Of a stretch of DNA of 64,000 bases, positions 6,309-53,302 are shown in pieces; position 1 is the stretch's first letter; each line of letters begins with the position of its first letter. The notes beneath the pieces are model-generated. The model did no database searches and was not told where the DNA came from. It saw only the letters and a list, made by a program, of their open reading frames with translations. Made by a program: the position numbers and the translations under genes. The DNA comes from an uncultured Dehalococcoidia bacterium (GTDB taxonomy: Bacteria > Chloroflexota > Dehalococcoidia > Lucifugimonadales > GCA-2712585): positions 1,030-65,029 of the forward strand of contig CAZPLA010000011.1 in the NCBI GenBank assembly GCA_964587385.1, in the 5' to 3' direction.

Positions 6309-7550
6309 ATGCTGAAAGATAACAACTACCAGGGTATGGATAATAATAACACCCACGATCAAAATAAAGCTTTGGATGAATTACGTGTGATCGATCTTAC
6401 CCGAGCTTTGGCAGGCCCATATTGCACAATGATGCTAGCCGATTATGGCGCAAACGTGATTAAGATCGAGATGCCTATAAAAGGTGACGATACCAGACAT
6501 TGGGGGCCTCCTTTTGTTAATGGAGAAAGCACTTACTTTATGTCAATCAATCGCAACAAGCGCAGTATCACCTTGAATCTCAAAACCAAGAAAGGCCGAG
6601 ATATATTGCTTCAAATGACCAAATCTGCTGATGTTTTAGTTGAAAATTTCACACCCGGAGTAGTTGCAAGATTAGGTATCGACTATGAAATCGTATCAAA
6701 ACTCAATCCAAAAATAATCTATTGTTCAATCTCCGGATTCGGTCAAACCGGCCCATACAGGAAAAAACCCGCCTATGACCAGATGATGCAAGGATTAGGC
6801 GGTATCATGAGCATTACCGGAGAACCTGATGGTCCACCTCAAAAAATTGGAATGGCTCTAACCGATATTGGAGCAGGAATGTTAGCAGCTTACGGTGTAA
6901 TGACGGCGCTGTTTAATAGGGAAAGGACAGGAAAAGGGCAATATATAGACGTATCGATGCTAGATTTACAAGTTGCATGGTTAACTTATCAAGCTGGAGC
7001 ATATTTTGCCAATGGTCGGGTTCCCCAAAGAATGGGAGCGTCTCACTTAAGCTTAGTACCATACCAATCTTTTCAATGCTCAGACGGTAAATATGTGAAT
7101 GTAGCCGTAGGCAACGAGCGCTTCTGGCATAGGTTTTGTGAGGGTATAAACCGCAAAGATCTAACATCAATGACTAAATATGCTCAAAATGATGCTCGAG
7201 TTAAAAATAGAAAACAGCTGGTCGCAATTTTAGAATCTGAATTCAATAAACAGCCTGCGGCTTACTGGGTAAGCAGACTTGAAGAAGTTGGAGTTCCATG
7301 TGGACCCGTAAATGATATATCAGACGTTTTCAACGATCCCCAAGTATTATCAAGAAACATGAAAGTGGAGTTGCAACACCCCAGTACTGGGAAAATTAGC
7401 CAAACCGGTATACCAATAAAGTTTTCTAGAACTCCAGGAAATATAGAACTAGCACCTCCAACATTAGGGCAGAATACATTAGAAATACTCTCTGAATTAG
7501 GTTATTCTGAATCAGAAATTGCTGCATTAAAGGACGACGAAATCATATAA
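6309..7550 (+). CDS. Family III CoA-transferase (CaiB/BaiF type)
   Basis: LRVIDLTRALAGPYCTMMLADYGANVIKIE and the later GFGQTGPY are family hallmarks. Confidence 0.85.
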   Translation: MLKDNNYQGMDNNNTHDQNKALDELRVIDLTRALAGPYCTMMLADYGANVIKIEMPIKGDDTRHWGPPFVNGESTYFMSINRNKRSITLNLKTKKGRDILLQMTKSADVLVENFTPGVVARLGIDYEIVSKLNPKIIYCSISGFGQTGPYRKKPAYDQMMQGLGGIMSITGEPDGPPQKIGMALTDIGAGMLAAYGVMTALFNRERTGKGQYIDVSMLDLQVAWLTYQAGAYFANGRVPQRMGASHLSLVPYQSFQCSDGKYVNVAVGNERFWHRFCEGINRKDLTSMTKYAQNDARVKNRKQLVAILESEFNKQPAAYWVSRLEEVGVPCGPVNDISDVFNDPQVLSRNMKVELQHPSTGKISQTGIPIKFSRTPGNIELAPPTLGQNTLEILSELGYSESEIAALKDDEII

Positions 7551-8502: not shown

Positions 8503-10185
8503 TTATCCTGTAACTGCGCCATAAGATGACGACGATACTAGTTTTGCATATTTGGCCAATGCTCCTGTATTATACTCAGTGGGCCTAGGTCTCCATAATT
8601 CAGACCTTCTACTCATTTCTTCTGGAGATATTTCCACTTCGATCGTTCGATTTGAAACATCAACCAAAATTATATCTCCTTCCTTCAACAACGCAATTGG
8701 TCCTCCAATTGCTGCCTCAGGAGCAACATGACCACCCATGAGGCCATGAGTAGCACCAGAAAATCGGCCATCAGTAACTAGAGCAACGCTTTCTCCCAAA
8801 CCTTGTCCCATAAGAGCTGAGGTAACCCCAAGCATTTCCCTCATACCCGGTCCACCTTTCGGCCCCTCATATCTAATAACCACTACATCATTAGGTTTAA
8901 TCAATTGTTGCTGTATTGCCAAAAAGGCCTCTTCCTCTGTATCGAATACACGAGCAGGCCCTCTTTGTTTTAGGTGTTGTTTTCCAGCAACTTTTACAAC
9001 AGACCCTTCCGGAGCAAGGTTACCCCTTAAAATTACTATGCCCCCAGTAGGCCCAAATGGCTTTTCAACTGTGGATACTATGTCAGTATGTGCAGGACCT
9101 TCCACTAACGCCAAATTTTCTTCCACTGTTTTCCCTGTAACAGTAAGAACATCACCAACAATAAGTCCAGCATCCAAGAGGCGTTTCATTATTACAGATA
9201 CTCCCCCAATTCTGTCTAGATCCGCCATAACGTAGCGCCCACCTGGTTTCATGTCAGCAATATAAGGAGTTTTATTACTTATGGAATCAAAATCATCTAT
9301 CGAAAGTGGCACACCTGCTTCATGAGCTATCGCAAGCAGATGTAATACTGCATTGGTAGAACCCCCCATAGCAACAACCAAAGTGATAGCATTCTGAAAT
9401 GCTTCCGTGGTCAAAATATCACTAGGTCGTATCCCTAATTTCAACAGATTCATTACCGCTTCTCCAGCTTTATAAGCAATTTGAGTTTTACGTTTATCTA
9501 CAGCTGGAATAGAAGCGTCCCCAGGAAGTGTCATTCCTAAAGCTTCAATCGCAGATGACATGGTATTAGCAGTAAACAATCCAGCGCATGACCCAGCTCC
9601 TGGACACGCTACACTCTCGATATCATGTAAATCCCCACGGGATATTGCACCTTTTGAAAACTTGCCAACTGCTTCAAAAACATCTTGAATAGTCACATCC
9701 CTATCCTGATATTTACCAGGAAGTATGGTCCCTCCATAAACGAATACCGTTGGTAAATTTAGTCTGGCTGCTGCCATCATTGTCCCAGGCAAATTCTTGT
9801 CGCATCCTGCAACAGTAACCAATCCATCCATCCCTTCTGCAAATGCTACCAACTCAATTGAATCGGCAATAATTTCACGGCTAACTAGCGATGCTTTCAT
9901 TCCTTGTGTTCCCATAGATATCCCATCACTCACCGTCAACACTCCAAATTCAAATGGTGTACCAAAGCTAGAACTGACTCCATCCTTTGTAGCTTTGACA
10001 ATGCTACCCAAATGATAGTTGCATGGTGTTAAATCACTCGCAAGATTCGCTACACCTACAAAAGGCTGGCCAAAATGTTGGTCCTTTAACCCCACCGCCC
10101 TAAGCATGGCTCGCGCAGGCGCCCTCGCAGGACCATCAACAACTTTGCTGCTTTTAATCCTCATCCCAGGATTAGACTCACCCAT
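8503..10185 (-). CDS. ilvD: Dihydroxy-acid dehydratase
   Basis: Collinear over 560 aa with the IlvD family, including CDKNLPG and [15 protein letters not shown]. An AGGAGG Shine-Dalgarno sits 8 nt upstream of the ATG. Confidence 0.95.
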
Positions 10186-14879: not shown

Positions 14880-15899
14880 CTAATCTTCTTCATTTAATAC
14901 GTATTCAAGGAATTGATTATCAAATGCTTCAGAATATTCAATCTTTGGACCTATCAGTTCATTACTAGTCATCCATCTAGTAAATTCTTGCCATCTGATT
15001 TGATCTTGCCATCCAAATCGATTTGAGTCCTCGTCTGTCCACAAAGGAGCAATCAATTCTATTCCCTTTCTTTCTATTGATTCATTAATTTCTGGATGAG
15101 CTTTCTTTAATACATCAATAGCCCTCTGTGGGTCTTCTAATGCAGATTCATGCCCTTTAACAAACGCTCTAACAAAACGACGGACCATTTCAGGATCATT
15201 TTCAATCAACTCTTGATTGGTCACTAAAATAAGCTCATAGTATTTTGGCACTCCCCAATCTTCAACACGCATTATATTTACCGGATATCCCTGATTCTCC
15301 ATCGCAATTGATTCGTGCGTCCAGTAGCAACCAACGCAACCATCAACTTTACCTCCTATTAGAGCAGCACTAAGATTAAATCCAACATTGACCAAAGAAA
15401 CGTCCTCCAATCCACGTGCTCCATCATTCTGTAACATGGTATCCAATAATGGCTCATCTGTAGGAATTCCTGGATATCCTACAGTCTTCCCTATAAGATC
15501 TCTCGGACGTATAATTCCAGATCCTTTTAGTGTCATTACAGAATTCAAAGGTGACTGGACTATAGCTGCAATAGAAACAACAGGAATGCTTTTCTCTCTG
15601 CCCAGTAACAAGTCAGGTTGATAGCTTATGCCAAATTGGTCTGAGCCTGTGCCAACCGTTAAAAGAATAGACGAGGGATCCTCCGGAGTATAGGCAGTAA
15701 CTTCCAACCCTTCATCTATAAAATACCCTTCGTCAATTGCCATGAACAGTCCTGCATGATTTGCATTAGGATACCAATCAAGTGCTATTTTTACTTTATC
15801 TATACCCAAATCACTTTTATCCTGATTACACGATAAAAGCACCAAAGACAAACACGATAGAACTATTAAAATACGTGTCACTCTAAATAAAATCGCCAC
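14880..15899 (-). CDS. thiY: NMT1/THI5-like ABC substrate-binding lipoprotein, probable HMP/FAMP-binding ThiY
   Basis: Signal peptide with lipobox (LVLLSC) and a family-typical LDWYPNANHAGLF. It sits in a TPP-riboswitch operon together with thiD. Confidence 0.7.
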   Translation of the reverse strand: MAILFRVTRILIVLSCLSLVLLSCNQDKSDLGIDKVKIALDWYPNANHAGLFMAIDEGYFIDEGLEVTAYTPEDPSSILLTVGTGSDQFGISYQPDLLLGREKSIPVVSIAAIVQSPLNSVMTLKGSGIIRPRDLIGKTVGYPGIPTDEPLLDTMLQNDGARGLEDVSLVNVGFNLSAALIGGKVDGCVGCYWTHESIAMENQGYPVNIMRVEDWGVPKYYELILVTNQELIENDPEMVRRFVRAFVKGHESALEDPQRAIDVLKKAHPEINESIERKGIELIAPLWTDEDSNRFGWQDQIRWQEFTRWMTSNELIGPKIEYSEAFDNQFLEYVLNEED

Positions 15900-15913
15900 A
15901 TCAGTACCCCCTG

Positions 15914-16714
15914 TTAATTATTACTAGACTGATTAGCTTTGTAATAGTTATTTAATAATATTCTTTCAGCCAAAAATACCAAGAAAAACAACATAATACC
16001 CATGAGAGCAAGAATAAATATCGAAGCGAAAACCCTTTCTGTTTCAAACTGAGGTATAGAACGCGTCATTAGATATCCCAATCCTTGGCTTGACCCAACC
16101 CATTCACCAATAACTGCACCTATTACACTGACCGCTGCAGCAATTTTGATGCCGGAAAATAAATTTGGAATACTAGATGGAATTTGGATTTTCCAAAATA
16201 TTTGCCGTTTTGAAGCACCAAATGTTCTTATCATACTAACCATATCGTCATCGATATTTTTCAAGCCATCAACCATATTTACAACTATAGGAAAAAACGC
16301 CACTAATCCCACAACTATTATTTTAGGTAAAATTCCATATCCAATCCAAATTAGAAGAAGTGGCGCTATCGCTATAATCGGAATCGCCTGAGAGGCTATG
16401 ACAAAAGGGTAAATTGACCTCTCTATCAACCTAGAATATGCTATTGCTAGAGCCAAAACAACGCCAACAATAATAGCTATCGCAAATCCGGCAATAATTT
16501 CGTATAGAGTAACTAAAGCATGTGCCGCAATCATTTGCCTTTCAATAAAAAGTTCTCTTGATATCTCCGATGGTGCCGGAAGTAACCATTTTGGGACATG
16601 GAATACTTGAAGAGCTAATTCCCAAATAATTAATAAAAAACAAATTATAACCGCAGGTAATGCCAAATAAATTATATGTGACCCTTTCAACCAATCACCC
16701 GCCTTGGTCATCAT
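15914..16714 (-). CDS. thiX: ABC transporter permease (ThiX-like, nitrate/sulfonate/bicarbonate family)
   Basis: Six hydrophobic segments. Lies between the substrate-binding and ATPase genes. Confidence 0.7.
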   Translation of the reverse strand: MMTKAGDWLKGSHIIYLALPAVIICFLLIIWELALQVFHVPKWLLPAPSEISRELFIERQMIAAHALVTLYEIIAGFAIAIIVGVVLALAIAYSRLIERSIYPFVIASQAIPIIAIAPLLLIWIGYGILPKIIVVGLVAFFPIVVNMVDGLKNIDDDMVSMIRTFGASKRQIFWKIQIPSSIPNLFSGIKIAAAVSVIGAVIGEWVGSSQGLGYLMTRSIPQFETERVFASIFILALMGIMLFFLVFLAERILLNNYYKANQSSNN

Positions 16715-16762
16715 CTAAACAAATATACCGTGAAATATCAGACATCTAATTTATTCCCCTTT

Positions 16763-17539
16763 TCATAGGTCCTTTGCCCTCAAAGCATCTATAAGGGTTT
16801 TCTTAAACTCTATGAATTTAGGATTTGTTAAAATGTCATATTCTCTAGGTCTATCCAAATTCACATCTAGTTCCAATATCACACGGGCAGGAGAATGACT
16901 CAAAACATAGACTTTATCGGACAATAGAATTGCTTCTTCTACATCATGAGTAATCAACATGACAGTTTTCTTAAAAGTGCTCCAAATAGTTAACAACCAT
17001 TCCTGCATTTGCCCCCTAGTGAAGGCATCCAATGCACCAAAAGGTTCATCTAATAAAAATAATTTCTGGTCTACTAATAGTGTTCTAAGGAAAGCTACTC
17101 GCTGACGCATACCACCAGATAAAGAATTTGGGTATCTACTCTGAAATTCTTTTATGCCGAATATTTCCATCATATCGATAGCATATTGTCTATACTGGTT
17201 CCCATTCCTACCAACAACTTCAAGGCCCAACATAGCATTATCCAAAACCGTCCGCCATGGTAACAAAAGATCTTTCTGAGGCATAAATCCAATTAGTCCT
17301 AATCTATTCTCAATAACATTCCCGTCCAATTCAATTGTCCCACTGGTAGGCTCGTCTAACCCTGCGATACATTTAAGAAGAGTAGTCTTGCCACATCCAC
17401 TAGGACCAATAACACTAACGAATTGGCCCTCAACAACTTTCAAGGCTATATTCTCCAAAACAGGAAATATTTGGTTATCAACATGAAATGATTTGGATAT
17501 TCCAGTCAGTCGTAGCTTAGCAGGATGATGAGTAATCAC
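16763..17539 (-). CDS. thiZ: ABC transporter ATP-binding protein (ThiZ-like)
   Basis: Walker A GPSGCGKTT, signature LSGGMRQR, Walker B LFLLDEPF. GTG start. Confidence 0.8.
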   Translation of the reverse strand: MITHHPAKLRLTGISKSFHVDNQIFPVLENIALKVVEGQFVSVIGPSGCGKTTLLKCIAGLDEPTSGTIELDGNVIENRLGLIGFMPQKDLLLPWRTVLDNAMLGLEVVGRNGNQYRQYAIDMMEIFGIKEFQSRYPNSLSGGMRQRVAFLRTLLVDQKLFLLDEPFGALDAFTRGQMQEWLLTIWSTFKKTVMLITHDVEEAILLSDKVYVLSHSPARVILELDVNLDRPREYDILTNPKFIEFKKTLIDALRAKDL

Positions 17540-17612
17540 GGTAAAGGTACGCCTGGAACAAAAAACACGAACGATTTAAAGACCGAATCTACAAGTACGG
17601 ATTTACACATAT

Positions 17613-17705
17613 CACTCCCTCCGCTGGCATTACCCAGTTCAGGTTGTAAGGGTCGGTGGGATTCTGGTCCACCCTCTCAGCCTGGCTCTCCAAGCTCCCC
17701 TACGT
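17613..17705 (-). promoter_or_regulatory. TPP (THI-box) riboswitch aptamer
   Basis: The minus strand reads ACGUAGGGGAGC..GGCUGAGAGGGUGGACCAGAAUCCCACCGACCCUUACAACCUGAACUGGGUAAUGCCAGCGGAGGGAGUG. This matches the conserved UAGGGGxGC / CUGAGA / ACCC / ACCUGAxCUGGxUAAUGCCAGCGxAGGGA core. It lies about 75 nt upstream of the thiZ start. Confidence 0.9.
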
Positions 17706-17767
17706 CCAATACAATTATTGCGCCGGAAGTATAGCTATAAGCAAAATGCATTGTCAAACATTGCCAT

Positions 17768-34966: not shown

Positions 34967-36172
34967 ATGACTACGCAAACGTCAACACTAAAAAGTAAAA
35001 CCCTGCTAGAGGAAATCAGGAAATATCTCCCTCAAGAGAAAAGTGCTCAAGTCGGAGAAGCATTAACGTATGCATTTCAATGCCATAAGGGTCAAAAGCG
35101 AGATTCTGGTGCACCATACATAGAACATCCCCTAAATACAGCATTATTGTTAGCGGAGATGCGCCTGGATGCTACTGCATTGTGTGCTGCACTCTTACAT
35201 GATGTGATAGAAGATTGTGAAGTGACGATTGAGGAACTAACAGCACGATTTGGGCCCGATGTATCCAAATTGGTGGATGGTGTAACTAAATTGACACGCA
35301 TGGAAATAAACGAAGTAAATATGCCATCTGTTTTAACCATCGAAGATCGCCTTAATGTCGAGACCCTACGTAAAATGCTTGTGGCAATGGCGGAGGATAT
35401 CCGTGTAGTACTCATCAAACTCGCAGACAGATTACACAACATGTTTACATTAAATTTTTTGTCTCCGCAGAGACAAAAATCAATTGCTCAGGAAACGTTA
35501 GATATTTATGCTCCATTAGCACACAGACTTGGAATTTGGGATATCAAATGGCAATTAGAAGACTTGTCGTTTCGATATTTGAAACCTCTAGAATACCGTC
35601 AAATTTCCAAGATGATATCTATAAAGAGAGTACAAAGAGAGGAAGTTGTAGGTGAACTTAGGCAGGTTTTACTGGATGAACTGGGAAGAATGAAAGTGGA
35701 AGCTGAAGTAATTGGTAGAGTTAAACATATATATAGTATTTACCAAAAAGGAAAAAAATATTCGGAACTTGGTAAAACCTTTAATGATATATATGACCTA
35801 TATGCTATAAGAGTTTTAGTTAATACAAATACGGACTGCTATCAAGCGTTAGGAGTGATACATAACCTCTGGAGACCTATTCCCGGACAATTTGATGATT
35901 ATATAGCTAATCCCAAAGAGAATCTCTACCAATCACTTCATACAACCGTTATGTGCAAGGGTTCTATAGCTCTAGAAGTGCAAATACGCACTCACGATAT
36001 GCACCATTTAGCGGAATACGGAGTGGCATCACACTGGCGCTACAAAGAGGGCCTTGAAAATGATGTTAGATTTGAAGAAAAAATGACCTGGTTACGCCAA
36101 TTATTAGAATGGCCCAGAGATATAGTGGGGACCGATGAGTTTCTTGAATCAATTAAAACATATATATTCTAA
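34967..36172 (+). CDS. rel: Rel (RelA/SpoT) N-terminal half: HD hydrolase plus (p)ppGpp synthetase domains, ended by in-frame TAA
   Basis: [12 protein letters not shown]...LLHDVIED (HD domain), then YAIRVLV...YQSLHTTV...[10 protein letters not shown] (synthetase domain). It stops at [10 protein letters not shown]. Confidence 0.85.
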   Translation: [401 protein letters not shown]

Positions 36173-36205
36173 TACCAGGTATTCGTATATTGACCTAAGG
36201 GCGAC

Positions 36206-37153
36206 GTGAAGGAATTGCCAGCTGGAGCAACTCCTTTGGATTTTGCATATAGAATCCATACTGAGTTAGGCCATAGGTGTATAGGAGCAAAGGTTAATGG
36301 CAAATTGACATCTTTAGATTATCAACTCAAAAACGGTGACACTGTTGAAATAATGACTACCAAAATTGCAAAAGGACCGAGTTTGGACTGGCTCAATTCC
36401 AACTTGGGATATATTCACACCACAAGTGCTCGTAACAGCGTGAGACAATGGTTCAGAAAACAACGAAGAAGTACCAACATCCAAACAGGAAGAGACCTCA
36501 TACGCAAAGCATCGAAACGCCTGAATATGAAAATTGACGAACGTAGTATGGCTGCACTATTTAAGGTTGCTACTGGAGACGAGTTTCTCCTGGCAATAGG
36601 GTCTGGAACTATAACTATAAATCAAGTAATCAACAAACTTACAGCTGAAGAATCAAAAGTAGTAGGCAATAGACCAATCCAAACTCCAGTTGTCAACCCA
36701 ATCCCAGGAATCAGTGTGCTAGGAGTCGAAGATATATTAACCCGCATTGGCAGATGTTGTAACCCGCTACCTGGCAATGAAATTATTGGATTCATTACAA
36801 GAACAAAGGGAATTACTATTCACAAAAGTACCTGCCATAGTGTTCAAACAGAAGATGAGCCAGAGAGATTAATAGAAGTGCAATGGAATCCAAAACAGCG
36901 ACTGTATCCCGTTTCTATAGAAATCCATGGTCACGACAGAGTAGGACTACTTAGTGACATTACTGCAAAATTGTCCGCAGAAGGGGTTAATATTGCTACC
37001 GTATCAACCAAAGAGAATACAGATGGTGGCGCAACAATATCTTTAACTATACACACAAGTGGATTAGAACAGCTAAGCAGGCTTTTTACCAAGCTTGAAA
37101 CTATTAAAGGAGTAACCAATACAAATCGAATTACTGTCCAAGCAAAAGAATAA
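36206..37153 (+). CDS. rel: Rel (RelA/SpoT) C-terminal half: TGS (lacking its first strand), helical, Cys-rich and ACT domains. Same frame as the N-terminal half
   Basis: [30 protein letters not shown] (TGS), [30 protein letters not shown] (zinc-finger domain) and an ACT-like C-terminus. 36206-34967 = 1239 = 3 x 413. Confidence 0.75.
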   Translation: [315 protein letters not shown]

Positions 37154-37236
37154 TTTCTAAACAACCCTTTACACTCATCACAGAGTGGTTATAATGTAAA
37201 ACCTAAATACAAAAATTGACTCGCAAGGGGGCCCCA

Positions 37237-37491
37237 TTGCCGTCCGAGAAATCAGAACGATCTTCAAAAAGAAAACAGGTACGTAACCGTGGCATAAGAT
37301 CTACAACGAGGACCTTTATCGCGAAAGCGAGAAATGCTATAGAAGCTGGAGATCAAGAACTCGCTTCGAATACAGTTGGGCAAGCTATCAAATCTTTGGA
37401 CAAAGCGGCAAAACGCGGAGTTATACACTCTAATAACGCGGCCCGCAGAAAATCGAGACTCGCAAAAAAACTTAACTCCATTTCTAAATAA
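37237..37491 (+). CDS. rpsT: 30S ribosomal protein S20
   Basis: Basic N-terminus PSEKSERSSKRKQVRNR, then LDKAAKRGVIHSNNAARRKSRLAKKL. I prefer the TTG at 37237, which lies 6 nt after AAGGGG, over the tracked start at 37216. Confidence 0.85.
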   Translation: MPSEKSERSSKRKQVRNRGIRSTTRTFIAKARNAIEAGDQELASNTVGQAIKSLDKAAKRGVIHSNNAARRKSRLAKKLNSISK

Positions 37492-37545
37492 CAACTGCAA
37501 TCCAATTAAAATGTAAGCACTCTCCACTAGTCTTGGCTTTAAACC

Positions 37546-37574
37546 TTGACATCAACCAAGCCCCATGCTACTTT
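37546..37574 (+). promoter_or_regulatory. lexA promoter candidate TTGACA-N17-TACTTT
   Basis: A perfect -35 hexamer lies at 37546-37551; this is the TTG that the ORF track uses as a start codon. The -10 candidate is at 37569-37574. Confidence 0.5.
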
Positions 37575-37579
37575 CGCTA

Positions 37580-37591
37580 GAACATTAGTTC
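37580..37591. promoter_or_regulatory. SOS box (Cheo-type LexA operator) GAACATTAGTTC
   Basis: A perfect GAAC-N4-GTTC palindrome (tAGAACATTAGTTCAt) lies 12 nt upstream of the lexA ATG. Confidence 0.8.
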
Positions 37592-37602
37592 ATGGACTAA
37601 CA

Positions 37603-38250
37603 ATGCGTGCAAGAAAGAAATTATCCATAAAACAAGAACGTATACTTTCCTTCATTCATAAAGCAATGACGGATAATGTGCTACCTACTACGGTGAGAGA
37701 TATTCAAAAAGCTTGTGGCCTAAGTTCCACTTCCGTAGTAAATTACAATCTAAGAATATTACAGATGCAAGGACATCTCCGTAGACATCCCGACGTAGCT
37801 AGAGGAATCGAATTGCTCGATAAATTGGGTAACTCGGTGAGCACTATGCCCCAAGTAGCCGTCATGGGCTATATTGCAGCCGGGGAACCTCTCCCAGGTC
37901 CATCTAATGATGGTTGGAACGATGAACCAATGGAAACCATTGAAGTCCCTCGTAATCTCATGAAGCCAGGTAAAGTTCTATATGCTCTTAAAGTAAAAGG
38001 CCAATCAATGATTGATGCCTTTATCGATGATGGTGATGTAGTACTATTAGAAAAAACAAGCCAGGCAAAAAATGGAGACATGGTGGCGGCATGGCTCATA
38101 CTTGAACAAGAGGCAACCCTGAAACGTTTTTATCAGGAAGGCCCTAAGGTAACGCTTAAACCCGAAAATAGCTCGATGAAAGCTATTTATACTGACGCAT
38201 CAAACATGGAAATCCATGGAAAAGTAACAGCAGTACTCAGGACTTTATAG
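37603..38250 (+). CDS. lexA: LexA repressor
   Basis: N-terminal winged-helix domain (LSIKQERILSFI...). Cleavage and catalytic motifs are present (YIAAGEP, VKGQSMIDA, ATLKRF). The start is moved to the ATG at 37603, downstream of the promoter and operator. Confidence 0.9.
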   Translation: MRARKKLSIKQERILSFIHKAMTDNVLPTTVRDIQKACGLSSTSVVNYNLRILQMQGHLRRHPDVARGIELLDKLGNSVSTMPQVAVMGYIAAGEPLPGPSNDGWNDEPMETIEVPRNLMKPGKVLYALKVKGQSMIDAFIDDGDVVLLEKTSQAKNGDMVAAWLILEQEATLKRFYQEGPKVTLKPENSSMKAIYTDASNMEIHGKVTAVLRTL

Positions 38251-41898: not shown

Positions 41899-43761
41899 AT
41901 GTACGTAGTCGGAACTGCAGGACATGTAGACCATGGCAAGTCAACTTTAATAAAAGCGCTTACAGGAATAGATCCAGATAGACTGCCTCAAGAAAAGCAA
42001 AGAGGAATGACCCTGGATTTGGGATTCGCATGGATGACTCTGCCTTCGGGGCGTCAAGTTAGTATAGTTGATGTTCCAGGACATGAACGATTTGTTAGGC
42101 ACATGCTAGCGGGAGTTGGCGCCATAGATCTAGCCCTCCTGATAATAGCAGCTGACGAAGGTGTAAAGCCTCAAACAACTGAGCACCTTCAAATCCTAAA
42201 TATGCTTAAAACCAAAAGAGTCCTAGTTGTGGTCACTAAATCCGACTTGGTAGACCAGGAAACCCTTGATCTTCTAAATCTCGAATTCGAGGACCTCTTT
42301 AAAGGTACTGTTTGCGAAGAATCCCCGATTATACAGGTCTCCGTACAGAGTGGACATGGACTCGACCACCTAAAGGAAATGATTGACCAGATTCTTAATA
42401 CCACTGAGCAACGCCAAGACCTAGGTAGACCTAGATTGGCTATTGACAGATTTTTTAGCGTATCTGGATTCGGAACAGTGGTAACTGGAACACTAATAGA
42501 TGGCTCATTTGCTACAGGAGATGTTGTTGAAATAGTCCCATCCGGGCTGAACTGCCGTATAAGAGCCATACAATCACACCGCACCACTATGGAGCATTCA
42601 GGGCCTGGACGAAGACTAGCCATTAATCTTTCTGGAATCTCAAACGAAGAAATACGAAGAGGTGATATAGTAACCAAACCTGGATGGCTTAAACCTAGTA
42701 TCATGATTGATGCAGAAATTCAACTTATGCCTAATGCAATTCGTCCCTTAAAACATAACTCTCGTCTTTCATTTCATCTTCTTGTAAGTGAAACCCAGGC
42801 AAGAGTGAGGTTGCTAAACGCTCGAGAGCTTCAGCCAGGTGAACACGCTTGGGCTCAAATTCATCTAACAAGCCCAATTGCATTGGCTAAGGGAGATTTA
42901 TTCATATTGAGAAATACTATGACCACTGTAGGTGGAGGCAGGGTCGTTGATATTGCTCCTAAACGGCATAGGCCTTTCGTTAAATCTGTATTAGAGCGCA
43001 TAGCATTATTAGATGAAGGCACTGTAGAAAGCAGTTTATTAGGTGCATTAGACGAACACAAACCTTCAAACCCAAAAGGGCTTGCTCAAATAACTAATCT
43101 AAACCTAAAGCAAATATTATCATCTATAACAGAGATGTCTAACAAAAAACAACTTGTACTATTGGATGAAATTGAAGCAACCCCTAATTCCGTCATATAT
43201 TCTAACTCAGCCTGGGATAATTTGGAGAGTCGCATAACCCAAGCTATAAATGCCTACCATGAACAACAGCCATTAAGAAGGGGAATCTCAAAGGAAGAAA
43301 TGCGTAGTCGTTTGGACGTTACTCCAGTAATCTTTGCAAAAATACTGAACCGAATGAAGAAAGAAGGAACAATTTCAGAACAGGAAGCCTATCTTCGTTC
43401 TCCCCACCATAGTACTGCGTTAGATGAACAACAAAAACACTTAATTAAATCATTTCTTGATGCCTTGAAATCAAACCCGTATTCTCCTCCCCCAAATCTA
43501 ATTTTGGAACCTGAATTGCTTGCATTACTGGTAAATGAAGGTAAAGTAGTGAAACTAAACAACTCAATAACTTTCTTGGCAGAAACCTACGCTGAAGCTG
43601 TCCAAATTATAAGCGCTCACATCAAATCCCAGGGTAATATTACTGTCGCACAAGCTCGAACTCTGCTAGACTCAAGTCGAAAATATATTCTACCGTTGCT
43701 CGAATACATGGACCAAAATAGAATCACTCGTAGAATCGGAGATCACCGAATATTAAGGTGA
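41899..43761 (+). CDS. selB: Selenocysteine-specific translation elongation factor
   Basis: [48 protein letters not shown] and TKSD. A long C-terminal winged-helix region brings it to 620 aa. Confidence 0.9.
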
Positions 43762-43764
43762 ATT

Positions 43765-44970
43765 ATGTCTTTAGATTTTAATAAAACTCTTGTTCAGATG
43801 ACCGATGTCGTTTCTCGAATGAAAACATCCCAAAACGATCGGAATTTAAGGCTTTCATTGGCGGCAAAAATAATGAAGGCTACCAAAGAAAATGATCTAA
43901 AGGAAAAACTTTCGTTGGCAAAAGATCGCCCCTTTTTATGGGCTAACCCAAGTTCCGAGCTTGGAACCGGTCATTCACCAACCGAATTGCCTGAGGAGTA
44001 TGCTGTAGTTGCAGCGGATGGTTCTCATATAGATGTGGATCGACACTTACCCGTTCCATGCTCTCTAATCAACATAGGAACTTGTATCCTTCAATACGGA
44101 ACTCATCCAAATGCTCACTTAAGTAATTACCCTAAGCTTTATTCGGACGAAGGATTGTACCTTACTGAACATGGAACCACGACCAGAGAAGTCGCCATAG
44201 AGGGCCCCGTTCTTGGATTTAAGCGCACCATAGATGAGGTGCGCGAGTTAGAAAAATTGATATCAGAAATTCCCCCAACAATACCAACATTAGCTTTAGT
44301 AGATGGTTCTCTTGTTTTGTGGGGCTTGTCAGGACAAGGATACCCTAATCTAGTCCGTCAAGAGTTCTTGGACAAAGGCATTTTGCCAATCCTAGACAAC
44401 CTAAAACAAGTTGCACAGAATAGGACTATAAGTGTTGCAGCATATGTTAGTCTTCCTAGAAGTACCGAAGTCGTCAATGCGTTACGGCTCTACCTCTGTG
44501 ATACCAATGCAGTTGAATGCAAAAGATCATGCTCAAACCGAATGTCCCCTTTTAAACCCTGCGATCTACCTAACGAACTCTTAGATAGAGAACTTTTCGA
44601 TATTCTATTAAAACCTGGACAGAGATCCGAGCTATTTTTCACAAATTCATCTATAGTCCGCGAGCATTACAACGGCCACCAAATATATTTCTTCTATATC
44701 AACAATGGACAAGAAATCGCTAGGATAGAAGTTCCTGACTGGGTCGCAACAAACGAAACTTTGGTTTCTTTAACTCATGCTTTGATTTTAGACCAATGTT
44801 ATAAAGGTAGAGGATATCCAGTATCAATTTCCGAAGCACATCAACAGGCCGTTATTAATGGTTCAGATCGACAAACATTTAAAGATATGTTAAGTTCTGC
44901 TCTCACGCGACAGGGCCTTCCAACTTACACCTCTGAAAAAACTCGCTCAAAAAGGCTAGCTTGGCTATAA
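43765..44970 (+). CDS. nurA: NurA-domain 5'-3' nuclease
   Basis: VVAADGSH, ALVDGSLVLWG and GYPVSISEAHQQAVI match the NurA catalytic Asp motifs and the C-terminal YP..(E/R)AH motif. The start lies 3 nt after the selB stop. Confidence 0.7.
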   Translation: MSLDFNKTLVQMTDVVSRMKTSQNDRNLRLSLAAKIMKATKENDLKEKLSLAKDRPFLWANPSSELGTGHSPTELPEEYAVVAADGSHIDVDRHLPVPCSLINIGTCILQYGTHPNAHLSNYPKLYSDEGLYLTEHGTTTREVAIEGPVLGFKRTIDEVRELEKLISEIPPTIPTLALVDGSLVLWGLSGQGYPNLVRQEFLDKGILPILDNLKQVAQNRTISVAAYVSLPRSTEVVNALRLYLCDTNAVECKRSCSNRMSPFKPCDLPNELLDRELFDILLKPGQRSELFFTNSSIVREHYNGHQIYFFYINNGQEIARIEVPDWVATNETLVSLTHALILDQCYKGRGYPVSISEAHQQAVINGSDRQTFKDMLSSALTRQGLPTYTSEKTRSKRLAWL

Positions 44971-44977
44971 TCTAACC

Positions 44978-45547
44978 ATGTCAGAACGAATAGGGGAAAT
45001 AATAGAGGCCAATACCAATAGTTTCATTGTCCAATGTTATAAACTCTATGAATCTCCACCACTAGGCTCAATCATACAAAGCGGAACACCTACAATATTT
45101 GGGGTGATATCCGAAATAACTACTGAACCATTGGACCCTTCTAGGCCAATAATTGCTATAGGGCATGACGAACCTACAGAAGATGAAATATATCGCAGTA
45201 ACCCTCAACTCAATAACTTGCTGTGTACCAGGTTAACCTCACTCACTATAGGATACTCAGACGGCGATAATGTTTATCATGGGTTCCCTCCCCATCCGCC
45301 CAGAATACATTCATTCGTTTATCTATCGGGAAATCATAATATCGAAAGTTTAGCCAAATCATTTGATTTTCTGCATTTACTGTTAACCAGCGGAGCCGGT
45401 GACGAGGTCATTTCGGCATGTTTACGTCAAATAAGCCAAAGGGTTCAAGACGGTTATACATTCCTTGTTGAATCAGGACAGGCACTCGCAACAGAACTAG
45501 TTGGTCAATTCCCTCGCCTCAATGCTATTCTTAGGAGGCTATCATGA
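44978..45547 (+). CDS. Hypothetical 189-aa protein whose N-terminal ~60 aa resemble a stand-alone HerA-type (HAS) barrel
   Basis: RIGEIIEANTNSFIVQC...PPLGSIIQSG..TIFGVISEITTE follows the same pattern as the N-terminus of the downstream HerA (LLGHVVSGSLRDGIEIRM...IKEGTYVTIHG..SFFGLITNVKL). The stop overlaps the herA ATG (ATGA). Confidence 0.4.
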   Translation: MSERIGEIIEANTNSFIVQCYKLYESPPLGSIIQSGTPTIFGVISEITTEPLDPSRPIIAIGHDEPTEDEIYRSNPQLNNLLCTRLTSLTIGYSDGDNVYHGFPPHPPRIHSFVYLSGNHNIESLAKSFDFLHLLLTSGAGDEVISACLRQISQRVQDGYTFLVESGQALATELVGQFPRLNAILRRLS

Positions 45548-47211
45548 TTGTTGAGGACAACATGGCTCAATCAAACGAACAGAGCTTGTTGGGTCATGTA
45601 GTCAGTGGCTCTCTACGTGATGGCATTGAAATTCGGATGGGTAATCAGATATCGGTTGAGGACATAAAAGAAGGTACATACGTAACAATACATGGCCAAA
45701 AAAAGTCATTTTTCGGATTAATTACCAATGTCAAATTAATGACTACAGACCCCAATCTTCAATTTTCTTATTCCGCAACAGACAACCCTTTCATCTCTGA
45801 AATCATCTCATCAAGCATGACATACGGCAGTCTCTCGGTGCTCCCTATGCTAACGCTCCCTGCAGTACTTGGGACTGAAGAGACCGTGGAACCAGCCAAA
45901 ACTGTACCGTCTCATTTTTCACAAGTCTTCCAGGCTTCCGAACGTGATGTCGAAGTCGTCTTCGGGAAAGAGGATAAAACACACTTTTTTATAGGTAATC
46001 CTCTAGATATGGAAACAAAAGTATGTATCAACCTTGACGAGCTCATTAAACGTTCATCAGCAGTTTTTGGGAAAAGTGGCACAGGCAAAACCTTTCTAAC
46101 TAGAATTCTATTAGCCGGGTTAATACAGAGTGACCTCGCATCCAGCCTAGTGTTTGACATGCACAATGAATATGGTTCAACCGGCCAAGACCGAGACAGA
46201 GGAAGACGCGTAAGTGGGCTCAAACAAATCTTTGAGAACAAGGTTGCCGTTTTTACACTTGATCCTGAAAATAGCAAGAGAAGACAGGCAAAATATGACT
46301 TTGAGGTCCAAATAGGTTATGACGAAATCGAACCGGAAGACATACAACTCCTACAAGCAACGCTGAACTTGTCTAATGTCGCTGCCGAGGCAGCCTATAC
46401 TTTTGAAGCAAAACTCGGAGGACCTAAAAAATGGCTCCATGCATTCCTCGAAATGGAAATCGAAGATGTTTATACACTAGCTCAATGCAACGGAGTAAAT
46501 TTACAGGCAGCCCGATCACTACATAATCGACTAACTCGGTTTAAACGCATTGGGTTTATGAAACCTACCGCCATAGATGATTCAGTTAAACGTATGCTAG
46601 ACCTGTTAAACAAAGGCAAACATGTGATCCTTGAGTTTGGTCGATACGGGGATGATCTCACCGCTTATATGCTCGCAGCTAATTTATTGACTCGCAGAAT
46701 ACATAATCGTTATGTATACATGAAAACAGAGGCCGAAGGAACCACTAAAGCCAATGAACCCAGACCATTAGTAATTTGCATTGAAGAGGCTCATAGATTT
46801 CTAAATCCAGCCGTAGCACACCAGACTATCTTCGGAAATATCGCGAGAGAATTGCGAAAATATAATGTTACCCTGATGATAATAGATCAACGGCCTAGTG
46901 CAATTGATTCGGAAGTAATGAGCCAAATAGGAACCAAGCTTGCTTGCCAACTCGACAACGATAGAGATATAGATGCCACTCTAGGTGGTACGTCTGGAAG
47001 TCGAGAATTAAGGTCTGTATTATCTAAACTAGATTCCAAACAACAAGCTTTGATTTTCGGCCATGCCGTACCACTGCCAGTTCTTGTCCGCACACGCGAA
47101 TACGGTTCAGATGGCTCATATACAGACCTAACCAGACCATCATGGCACACAACTGATTTCGGCATTGAGACCGAAGAAGAATTAGAGGAAAGATTAAAAG
47201 AATTATTCTAG
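45544..47211 (+). CDS. herA: HerA-like (DUF87/FtsK-HerA superfamily) hexameric ATPase
   Basis: N-terminal barrel, Walker A FGKSGTGKTFL, Walker B PLVICIEEAHRFL, then MIIDQRPSAIDSEVMSQIGTKLACQLDNDRD. Confidence 0.8.
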   Translation: MIVEDNMAQSNEQSLLGHVVSGSLRDGIEIRMGNQISVEDIKEGTYVTIHGQKKSFFGLITNVKLMTTDPNLQFSYSATDNPFISEIISSSMTYGSLSVLPMLTLPAVLGTEETVEPAKTVPSHFSQVFQASERDVEVVFGKEDKTHFFIGNPLDMETKVCINLDELIKRSSAVFGKSGTGKTFLTRILLAGLIQSDLASSLVFDMHNEYGSTGQDRDRGRRVSGLKQIFENKVAVFTLDPENSKRRQAKYDFEVQIGYDEIEPEDIQLLQATLNLSNVAAEAAYTFEAKLGGPKKWLHAFLEMEIEDVYTLAQCNGVNLQAARSLHNRLTRFKRIGFMKPTAIDDSVKRMLDLLNKGKHVILEFGRYGDDLTAYMLAANLLTRRIHNRYVYMKTEAEGTTKANEPRPLVICIEEAHRFLNPAVAHQTIFGNIARELRKYNVTLMIIDQRPSAIDSEVMSQIGTKLACQLDNDRDIDATLGGTSGSRELRSVLSKLDSKQQALIFGHAVPLPVLVRTREYGSDGSYTDLTRPSWHTTDFGIETEEELEERLKELF

Positions 47212-50605: not shown

Positions 50606-53302
50606 CTACATACCTCCCCTGTCCACATTAGATGAAGCTCTTCTACCCTCCGGAGTAAACATTCCACTTCCACGACTTCCCCAAGCAAAAGCAACAAGAT
50701 GCAATAAAGTCCGACTTACATTGAGCGCGGTAAACATACTCAATCCTACTCCTAAGAATAAAACAATGGCGAATCCAGTAATACGTGGCTCTCCTAACTC
50801 CCGTCCAAAATAAAACAATATTCCGCAAGTTATAAATGTGGAAATATTACTATCTCTAATTGCCGTCCATGAACGACGAAATCCTATATCTATTGACGAC
50901 ATTAAACTTCTACCAGTTCTTAACTCTTCTTTGAGTCGCTCAAATATGAGAATATTAGCATCGACTGCCATACCTATGGATAAGATAAGCCCAGCCAGTC
51001 CAGACATAGTTAAAGTTACAGGAAGCATTTTAAACAATGCTAACAATATCGCTGCATAAATCATTAGCGAACTAGCGGCAATTAAGCCTGGGATACGATA
51101 GTAAGCTATCATAAATAAAAGTATTAACCCTAAACCAACCAGTCCCGCTTTTAGACTTGCCTTAAGAGATTCATTTCCTAGCAACGAGTCCACCGTGCTC
51201 TCTCTCACCAAATCAAGCGACACAGGAAGACTTCCAGATTCCAGTTGTATGGACAGGGTTCGAGCGCTATCAAATGTAATATTATCTCCCTCTATATATC
51301 CAGCACCTCCGATTATTGCCTGGCGCGCTATCGGACAAATAATAGTCTCTCCGTCTAATATATAAGCGATACATTTAGCATTATTTCCTGCTATTCCAGC
51401 AGTCAATTCCCTAAAAATTCTTGTGCCTGTATTATCAAACACAAAGTTAACTATAGGTAAACCAGTCGTAGGATGAGTGCTAGGGTACGCACTACTAAGA
51501 TTACTGCCGGTTAAAGATTCTCCGCTACGTCCAACCGACTCCCTGTCAGAAAACTGAGAACAATCTGAGTTAAGGCACGTTCGTTCCTTGATAACTAGTT
51601 GTGCAGTTTGGCCAATGAGGGCCTTAGCTTCTTCAACCCCGCCACTCAGTTCAAAGGATTGAACCGCATGTACATTAAAGGCTAATTTAGATTTTAGTTC
51701 TCCCTGTTCATCAGCTCTTAAGCTTGGAATACGAATTCGGAAACTACTGCCAAGAGGCTGTGTATATGACACATCATCATATCCCAAATCACCCATCACT
51801 GATTTAATTTTATCAAGATCTACTGATTCTAAATAAACCGTCCTAATTCGCCCAGTTGAAGGATTGAAGCTGTATTCTCGCAACTCGCCTACCAAGTCCC
51901 CTAGCCCAACACGAATTTCTTCGGATGAATCTTCAGATAATCCAGGAATGTCCATAAGGACTCCATTAACTACCGGTTGATCATTCAAACGAACAATCTT
52001 GGCTTGATCTAGCCCTATCGTACTTAATCCTTCCTGAAGTTGAACCTCTGCCACACTATCTTGAAATACTACCTCTATATTCGTGTCACCAGCTCCAGGC
52101 ATCTGTACTAAAACTCGGTCCTCTCCAAATCTCTGGATAACCGGTTCTGTTATTCCAAATGCGTCTACTCGTCTTTGAATGGTATCAACCACTCCATCCA
52201 TACGCTCTGGAGTAGGCTCTTCTCTTTGAATTTGAATTTGCCCAACTGTCCCAAGTATTTGAGTTAGTTCAGTTTCAAGGGTTAGAGATTTTTCATCTGT
52301 TATAGATGGTATATCAATCCCATAACCAGTAGCCCTAGACTCAGTAACTATGGATTCAGGGTGCCCTAGATAAACAAGAACCGTTTCAACTTCTGTTTGT
52401 TCTTCACTTTCAGCAAACACTAAATCCATGAGAGCTGTATCCACATTCATAGCTTCTACAGCTTGTATTCCCACGATTTCTCCTTGGACATCATTCTCCA
52501 GCTGAGAGTGTTCCGAAGCGTCTACCATCTTAATAATCGCTACGATATTATTTCCCCCATGAGAAATCACAGTTGACCCTTTATAATCCAGCGAATCTAA
52601 TACATCTCGTACTATTCCTTCATCAGGGAAACCTTCAAAAAATATAAGAGACTGTACTTCATCACTGTCATCTTCCGAAGCCAAGAATAAATCATCTAAC
52701 TTATATAGTTCTCCAAGGGCATTCTCTAGATCAGTTTCCGCGTCCTGATCAAGGTAAGGCATTCCTTTAACAGTAAATATTTGCTCCTGTAAACTTGCTA
52801 CCTCAACTCCCTTATAACCTAAGTTCGTCAAAACTGCTTCTACAGTTTCAACATTCGGCAAATCAACAACTTTCAATTGTAGTCGCGTACGATATTCATT
52901 TTTATGTCCGTAATCGACTAATTCCCCCAATTCAGATTCAAGACCTTCGATAAAACTATCAATCTCAGCAGGTTTTAAACCAGGAACACTGATAGAAAAT
53001 TCCTTTTGATCAAACAAACTAATATTAAGTGTATCGAAACCAATTCCTTTAAATGCTTCTCTTATATCTGATTCAGAATGGGATTCCCCAAAAGTAATAT
53101 CTATATTTACCGGGCGTTCTGCCTGATAAATAAGATGCGTGCCTCCCCTCAAATCAAGACCTAAAACTAAACCAAGGGGCCCATCTCCCCCTCTATCGAA
53201 AGACTCACCAGGTAGATCGATATCCTGATAACTAAGTATCATCACTGAGCTAATAACTAAAGCAACTATAAACAACAAATTTCTAAGGTTTTTTCTACGC
53301 AC
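50606..53302 (-). CDS. secD: Protein translocase subunit SecD, expanded to 898 aa by six repeats of a ~70-aa periplasmic module
   Basis: Canonical blocks are present: GLDLRGGTHLIYQ, IQRRVDAFGITEPVIQRFGEDRVLVQMPGAGD, AKALIGQTAQLVIKE and a C-terminal 6-TM region with GMAVDANILIFERLKEE. Long inserts separate them. Confidence 0.85.
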   Translation of the reverse strand: MRRKNLRNLLFIVALVISSVMILSYQDIDLPGESFDRGGDGPLGLVLGLDLRGGTHLIYQAERPVNIDITFGESHSESDIREAFKGIGFDTLNISLFDQKEFSISVPGLKPAEIDSFIEGLESELGELVDYGHKNEYRTRLQLKVVDLPNVETVEAVLTNLGYKGVEVASLQEQIFTVKGMPYLDQDAETDLENALGELYKLDDLFLASEDDSDEVQSLIFFEGFPDEGIVRDVLDSLDYKGSTVISHGGNNIVAIIKMVDASEHSQLENDVQGEIVGIQAVEAMNVDTALMDLVFAESEEQTEVETVLVYLGHPESIVTESRATGYGIDIPSITDEKSLTLETELTQILGTVGQIQIQREEPTPERMDGVVDTIQRRVDAFGITEPVIQRFGEDRVLVQMPGAGDTNIEVVFQDSVAEVQLQEGLSTIGLDQAKIVRLNDQPVVNGVLMDIPGLSEDSSEEIRVGLGDLVGELREYSFNPSTGRIRTVYLESVDLDKIKSVMGDLGYDDVSYTQPLGSSFRIRIPSLRADEQGELKSKLAFNVHAVQSFELSGGVEEAKALIGQTAQLVIKERTCLNSDCSQFSDRESVGRSGESLTGSNLSSAYPSTHPTTGLPIVNFVFDNTGTRIFRELTAGIAGNNAKCIAYILDGETIICPIARQAIIGGAGYIEGDNITFDSARTLSIQLESGSLPVSLDLVRESTVDSLLGNESLKASLKAGLVGLGLILLFMIAYYRIPGLIAASSLMIYAAILLALFKMLPVTLTMSGLAGLILSIGMAVDANILIFERLKEELRTGRSLMSSIDIGFRRSWTAIRDSNISTFITCGILFYFGRELGEPRITGFAIVLFLGVGLSMFTALNVSRTLLHLVAFAWGSRGSGMFTPEGRRASSNVDRGGM

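Follow-up and report, generated by a model that had tools for sequence, protein, structure and literature searches.

Two in-frame stop codons in the rel gene of an uncultured Dehalococcoidia bacterium: a private lesion whose likeliest cause is a sequence or assembly artefact

The DNA analysed here, referred to as the window, is a stretch of 64,000 nucleotides (40.6% G+C, no N) from contig CAZPLA010000011.1 of the assembly GCA_964587385.1 of an uncultured Dehalococcoidia bacterium. Its rel gene reads as an ordinary long Rel gene carrying a private lesion, a cluster of four substitutions that places two stop codons in the reading frame. An artefact of sequencing or assembly is the most likely cause of this lesion; we consider it probable and rank it ahead of a real, recent null mutation. 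The artefact is favoured because the lesion is private, clustered and of the same signature as the other private substitutions of the window, and it is supported because the other tested genes of the window are healthy and of full length.

Organization of the rel locus

The full extent of rel is 34967–37153 on the plus strand, and both stops lie in frame inside it (Table 1). A single frame opens with ATG at 34967, meets TAA at 36170–36172 after 401 codons, continues through the residues YQVFVY to TGA at 36191–36193 and is then open down to TAA at 37151–37153. The original prediction, which had described rel as split by these two stops, is confirmed on this point. The claim that the upstream half keeps both catalytic domains is likewise borne out by Pfam, which finds HD_4 complete (profile positions 1–156 of 156, E 2.7e-54) and RelA_SpoT complete (1–111 of 113, E 1.4e-41). 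The downstream half had been said to contain the remainder of TGS, a Cys-rich domain and ACT with no further stops. Its frame is indeed open to 37153 and it matches TGS (profile 6–60 of 60, counted from PKGD), RelA_AH_RIS and ACT. The motifs HDVIED and EVQIRT and the TGS histidine (IHTELG) are all seen in the rel translation. Of the NCBIfam model TIGR00691, the upstream piece covers positions 1–357 and the downstream piece positions 374–686; taken alone, the former scores 511 bits, above the curated cut-off of 499.2, while the latter scores 215.9 bits, below it. In the window as written, the two stops sever the regulatory region (TGS, helical/RIS, ACT) from the polypeptide that holds the catalytic domains.

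The lesion had also been said to cut rel exactly at the catalytic/regulatory junction. This holds roughly, the first stop being in the linker, but the boundary is not a clean one. The second stop lies within the first TGS strand, and the first start codon past it (GTG at 36206, 12 nt downstream) lies beyond that strand and still inside TGS, so that a product restarted there would be without its first strand. As for signs of decay along the gene, rel carries outside the cluster a single private change, E515A at a conserved position, with neither a frameshift nor an additional stop.

Table 1. Features of the rel locus and of private substitutions nearby (coordinates of the window).
Feature	Position	Strand	Basis
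Upstream piece of rel, HD hydrolase and (p)ppGpp synthetase, 401 codons + TAA	34967..36172	+	residues 1–398 protein-identical to intact conspecific P0008
Cluster of four substitutions, private to the window assembly: 36161 G>T (D399Y), 36170 C>T (Q402*), 36173 G>T (D403Y), 36192 C>G (S409*)	36161..36192	+	alignment to relatives
First in-frame stop, TAA	36170..36172	+	CAA (Gln) in eight conspecific assemblies, CGA (Arg) in L001
Second in-frame stop, TGA	36191..36193	+	TCA (Ser) in all conspecifics and L001; Thr in 158/164 Dehalococcoidia relatives
Downstream remainder of rel: TGS from PKGD, helical/RIS, ACT; 319 sense codons + TAA	36194..37153	+	translation, Pfam, TIGR00691
GTG, sole candidate restart codon; no GGAG/GAGG/AGGA core upstream; Val414 in intact alleles, same bases	36206..36208	+	sequence comparison
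Further private rel substitution, A>C (E515A)	36510	+	site E or Q in 154/161 relatives
Two private C>A, 4 nt apart, in neighbouring lexA (one synonymous, one P>T); signature as in the rel cluster	37683..37687	+	alignment to relatives

Surrounding genes and genetic code

The rel gene is surrounded by ordinary housekeeping genes (recG, argS, hisS, lexA, icd, mdh, selB, secDF, priA, def, trmD, nrd and ilvD). The window genes tested other than rel have full-length domain matches throughout, and rel is the sole broken gene seen. The genetic code of the window is standard, its 38 genes ending with TAA (21), TAG (11) or TGA (6). This usage argues against a reading in which the two stops of rel are recoded, whether by an alternative code, by selenocysteine at TGA or by programmed read-through, to which we give virtually no credence. 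Recoding would have to apply to two stop codons of different kinds, no other gene of the window has an in-frame stop, and the relatives have Gln or Arg and Ser codons at the two sites. TAA followed by T, the arrangement at the first stop, is moreover a strong terminator context. What speaks for recoding is that SelB is encoded in the window (41899–43761) and that TGA followed by C, the arrangement at the second stop, is a leaky context in Escherichia coli.

Conspecific copies and nearest species

Eight conspecific DNAs from independent samples were compared with the window: Logan DRR683874 and DRR683870, ENA ERZ27286524, a TARA scaffold, two “LUOE20-1” scaffolds and two further ENA assemblies. 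In all eight of these SAR202 assemblies rel runs without interruption for 726 or 728 codons. They are collinear with the window at 98.2–99.8% nucleotide identity, and five of them align without gaps over up to 22 kb. Their junction reads ACA GAT ATA TTC CAA GAC CAG GTA TTC GTA TAT TCA CCT, that is TDIFQDQVFVYSPKGD. The intact conspecific protein P0008 matches positions 1–685 of 687 of TIGR00691 with 765.8 bits (cut-off 499.2). As judged from these assemblies, rel of this species is a single 728-codon gene predicted to code a standard long bifunctional Rel with HD hydrolase, synthetase, TGS, helical/RIS and ACT regions. An exact look-up among ~15 billion proteins places the 401-aa product on one contig, the window's own 68.9-kb record, while proteins of 726 or 728 aa from at least 11 contigs fall into the 90%-identity cluster of the downstream half.

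In species-representative genomes 80 Dehalococcoidia/SAR202 loci were found by a scan, the nearest being that of the SAR202 single-cell genome AC-409-J13 (locus L001; 91% amino-acid and 88% nucleotide identity), which shares with the window the gene order hisS, rel, lexA, icd. Its junction is free of stops, TDIFRDQVFVYSPKGD, and in it, as in the eight conspecifics, the regulatory and catalytic regions are on one polypeptide. Since this outgroup has the intact alleles at all four bases of the cluster, the bases of the window are the derived state.

Conservation of the junction in Dehalococcoidia

A wider set of 166 Dehalococcoidia rel loci was collected from genomes and metagenomes. None of the 164 loci having one alignment across the junction has a stop there. 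Two of the 166 have stops elsewhere in rel, one on a contig that ends at the junction and the other on a scrambled scaffold. The residues altered in the window are conserved among the 164: position 399 is Asp in 163, position 403 is Asp or Asn in 160, the neighbouring Q404 is invariant, and Tyr occurs at neither 399 nor 403 in any of them. The TGA had been placed at a conserved Thr; position 409 is Thr in 158 loci and Ser in the remaining 6, in keeping with that claim. A search of JGI metagenomes using a pattern in which the four cluster positions were left free gave no match. A protein-based scan of the same metagenomes found other species only, at up to 79% amino-acid identity and all intact at the junction. 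The collection therefore gives no allele frequencies for the present species.

This distribution bears directly on one of the three explanations offered at first, that of a genuinely bipartite Rel. It supposes an evolved split in which an unregulated catalytic N-terminal protein works together with a regulatory C-terminal protein, translated separately from GTG 36206 or produced by read-through. Both pieces are without further stops, both catalytic domains are complete and GTG lies 12 nt past the second stop, as such a split would have it. The comparison with sister genomes nevertheless went against it, sense codons being present at both sites (CAA or CGA, and TCA) in the eight conspecifics and L001. 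None of the 8 conspecific assemblies has the split, nor does the nearest species, and it is lacking in 164 of 166 relatives. Nor do the 315 stop-free codons that were counted downstream imply function, as had been argued. With 99.8% identity between the window and intact alleles, the downstream half is free of stops because there has been almost no time since the lesion for any to arise. It differs from the nearest intact allele by one or two residues, and with zero divergence since the split an intact downstream frame is uninformative. The ratio dN/dS relative to L001 does not bear on the split either. It is 0.071 for the N-terminal and 0.095 for the C-terminal half of the window gene, the same as in the intact locus L081 (0.072 and 0.095).

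Signals for separate expression point in the same direction. A Shine-Dalgarno core (GGAG, GAGG or AGGA) precedes 16 of the 38 window genes but not GTG 36206, whose surrounding bases are unchanged from those of intact alleles. Scans for promoter-like and terminator-like sites gave nothing beyond shuffled controls, the count of promoter-like sites being below the shuffle mean. A restarted product would lack the first TGS strand (QVFVYSPKGD): the TGS profile match starts at position 6 of 60 at PKGD, and GTG is four codons further on. Read-through, for its part, must pass two different stops, TAA and then TGA. Finally, D399Y and D403Y are radical changes at conserved Asp residues, and they would be superfluous in a designed split. 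An evolved bipartite Rel is thus hardly credible, while recent inactivation and a sequence or assembly error, the other two explanations first put forward, remain.

Statistics and signature of the substitution cluster

Four of the 50 differences between the window and its nearest relative (L083, 22,187 nt compared) fall within 32 nt (P ~0.002 under uniform placement), a clustering beyond what chance would give. Private substitutions were defined as those in which the window stands alone against every covering relative. Their baseline extends over ~45 kb of the window, with at least four relatives over 10.3 kb only; it was limited to ~45 kb because exact look-ups of the 401-aa product and of two other window proteins gave nothing. 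In the 10.3 kb there are seven private sites, namely the four of the cluster, 36510, 37683 and 37687, with 1 transition versus 6 transversions. Two further sites, 17840 and 18246, are covered by two relatives each; both are transversions and both nonsynonymous. The nine substitutions together amount to 1 transition versus 8 transversions and to 8 nonsynonymous versus 1 synonymous, and 8 of the 9 originate at a G:C pair. The same alignments contain natural variation of 87 transitions versus 50 transversions, which differs from the private changes at the seven positions with at least four relatives (Fisher P = 0.014). The difference is significant only when all well-covered positions are used; restricted to rel, the test gives P = 0.34.

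Random substitutions in rel would create stops in ~5–6% of cases. Two stops among five random hits in the gene have P ~0.02–0.03, which counts against an artefact, although the finding was itself selected for having stops. The density of private changes is ~4–9 per 10 kb. Over a genome of an assumed typical bacterial size this density would give many nonsense mutations and be nonviable; on this ground, it is more plausible that the bases are not the true sequence of the organism. Note that a short metagenome scaffold carrying rel (L171) has private differences of the same kind, 1 transition versus 9 transversions, clustered with four within 49 nt; those located in rel are all nonsynonymous (6 of 6). 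It is a positive control, showing that assemblies do produce error-like clusters in rel.

Origin of the lesion

In the artefact reading, the bases of the cluster would have entered the consensus from an error-bearing or damaged template. A possible route would be a low-coverage stretch bridged by a poor read; alternatively, oxidised guanines may have been fixed through amplification. Going by the pattern of the private substitutions only, we infer that their signature means error and not mutation. The length of the contig (68.9 kb), which suggests a decent average coverage, counts against an artefact. So does the expectation that a real mutation unfiltered by selection would also be mostly nonsynonymous.

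The main competitor is a real lesion, which we hold to be a serious possibility though a less probable one than an artefact. A single multi-nucleotide event (an error-prone repair patch or clustered guanine damage) would have hit rel very recently in the sampled cell or strain. The cell would then make the catalytic N-terminal part of 401 aa, blind to the ribosome, and little or no C-terminal part; the allele would be a fresh loss of regulation and not an evolved design. The bases are, after all, present in the deposited sequence. All four changes are substitutions that leave the frame unshifted, in an assembly with no indel errors over 22 kb, a figure that also counts against an artefact. The unusual private E515A in the downstream half would fit the very onset of relaxed selection. 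An engineered Rel of Bacillus subtilis reduced to its N-terminal domains (NTD-only) keeps low synthetase activity and is tolerated (PMC7058999). What counts against a real lesion is that the allele is seen on one contig only and that a transversion-rich, nonsynonymous signature is also found outside rel (lexA, 17840, 18246), at a density too high for a viable genome.

Furthermore, no templating hairpin or donor accounts for the cluster. Template switching at a quasi-palindrome was considered since two imperfect palindromes overlap the cluster and some of the changes improve their pairing. It was rejected, with mismatches inside the supposed tract and changes on both arms. The DNA folds of the mutant and intact alleles (-1.3 versus -1.6 kcal/mol) are both weak and no better than those of shuffled sequences. 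No k-mer of 11 nt or more spanning more than one mutated base, as expected of an ectopic gene-conversion donor, was found elsewhere in the 64 kb searched, a search of low power. A diversity-generating retroelement is ruled out, the changes being at G and C and not at A.

Other sequences also show irregularities at this site. The only indel in L085, the assembly of another strain, removes 6 nt in frame (D403-Q404) from the 32-nt stretch of the cluster, and the scrambled scaffold L086 has one deletion breakpoint there. A database protein from another short contig (P0015) begins with an adapter-derived peptide fused exactly at PKGD. This coincidence could mark a trouble spot of assembly or coverage, which fits an artefact, or a true hotspot. 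The deletion in L085 has been counted in favour of a real lesion, as the site might be prone to mutation. That the lesion is real and that 36161–36192 is a genuine hotspot in the SAR202 population, affected by different lesions in three assemblies (the window, L085 and L086), is in our view very unlikely. Scaffolds of the same pipeline carry deletions in other genes too (L174), which weakens it. If it were true, some of the cells would rely on an NTD-only Rel blind to the ribosome, and stringent-response control would vary naturally in an abundant oligotroph.

Significance and comparison with known systems

Had the split been an evolved design, a globally abundant ocean bacterium would run its (p)ppGpp metabolism without coupling to ribosome sensing; the evidence indicates otherwise, the species having a normal single-chain Rel. 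The case calls for caution on a more general point: an open frame downstream of a lesion does not speak for function if the lesion is younger than any divergence that could test it. When a contig departs from its conspecifics by private changes that are clustered and rich in transversions, this can serve to flag consensus errors in environmental genomes, which otherwise get annotated as pseudogenes or split genes.

The intact conspecific protein has the same domain order as the long bifunctional Rel proteins of TIGR00691 (B. subtilis, Streptococcus equisimilis, Mycobacterium tuberculosis). The window frame differs by two interruptions, both located between model positions 357 and 374, which no other copy of the species has. 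If the lesion is real, its expected outcome would be a catalytic fragment of 401 aa, comparable to the engineered NTD-only Rel 1-373 of B. subtilis, with both catalytic domains and no region for sensing ribosomes or tRNA. The low synthetase activity of the B. subtilis protein suppresses the amino-acid auxotrophy of a ppGpp-null strain, whereas its hydrolysis is poor in vivo and it does not respond to starved ribosomes (PMC7058999). That protein is a laboratory construct, and the truncation seen in the window is not conserved in nature. The upstream product also resembles the short RSH proteins (SAS/SAH, RelQ/YjbM) as a stand-alone catalytic RSH without regulatory domains. Unlike them it has two catalytic domains; it is clearly a long RSH that has been cut short, scoring 34.7 bits with the YjbM model (cut-off 320 bits).

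The lesion itself is probably best compared with the consensus errors of low-coverage or damaged-template Illumina assemblies, which we take to be marked by G>T or C>A changes at oxidised guanine and by A/C and G/T miscalls. Assigned to this class by its substitution pattern only, it is like them in being clustered, dominated by transversions, mostly from G:C pairs and with no sign of purifying selection.

Differences among conspecific assemblies

The 32-nt stretch of rel that holds the four private substitutions of the window, at the linker and first TGS strand, carries structural lesions (window-equivalent 36173-36188) in two further conspecific assemblies. In L085, 6 nt are deleted in frame, by which D403 and the otherwise invariant Q404 are lost. 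Scaffold L086 has a deletion of 283 nt that starts at window-equivalent 36188. Either the stretch causes trouble in assembly, or it is a real hotspot.

Private differences, namely bases found in one assembly and in none of the relatives covering the position, are also found in L171, an otherwise near-identical scaffold. Nine of its ten private differences are transversions, four of the ten lie within 49 nt, and all six that are located inside rel are nonsynonymous. They look like consensus errors. The transversion signature of the rel cluster is shared by two private C>A changes of the window in lexA, at 37683 and 37687 (spaced 4 nt), one of which is synonymous while the other leads to P>T in the DNA-binding domain. 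Note that the start of lexA differs between gene callers (TTG 37546 or ATG 37603). Among the promoter-like sites of the region, the strongest (37168-37195, 11/12 matches) lies in the rel-lexA spacer.

The conspecific scaffold L174 has no alignable sequence for 168 nt in the CoA-transferase gene (relative to window 7329-7496) and a deletion of 24 nt in ilvD (relative to window 8735-8772). It follows that indel differences (or errors in the scaffolds) are no rarity in this series of assemblies. The window and L174 also differ by five transitions within 16 nt (1750-1765) of the solute-binding-protein gene. This patch, whose transitions contrast with the transversions of the rel cluster, resembles a small patch of natural recombination.

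Two database proteins that cluster with the intact rel products (P0004 and P0015) start or end with MCIRDR, LSLIHI or MYKRQ, which are what the Nextera transposase mosaic-end adapter gives on translation. The public protein collection thus includes gene calls from adapter-contaminated contigs.

Other features of the window

Coordinates of the features discussed
Feature	Position	Strand	Remarks
rel of L171	L171:201-2387		scaffold LUOE20-1_SAMN11874522
TPP riboswitch	window 17599-17711	-	Rfam RF00059, 67.4 bits
rel-lexA spacer	window 37154-37602		~400 nt
SelB - NurA - small ORF - DUF87 group	window 41899-47211	+	
SecD-like ORF	window 50606-53302	-	898 aa

The gene coding the selenocysteine elongation factor SelB is directly followed by those of a NurA nuclease, a small ORF product that matches no family and a DUF87 (HerA-like) ATPase. 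A tRNA search of the 64-kb window found none of any kind, tRNA-Sec included. The SecD-like ORF has recognisable SecD domains only from residue ~368, preceded by a long amino terminus region without family match.

The TPP riboswitch is positioned upstream of an ABC transporter operon (14880-17539; ABC_tran, BPD_transp_1 and an NMT1-type binding protein) and adjoins a Phos_pyr_kin/PfkB kinase gene. Together they probably form a unit for uptake and salvage of thiamine precursors.
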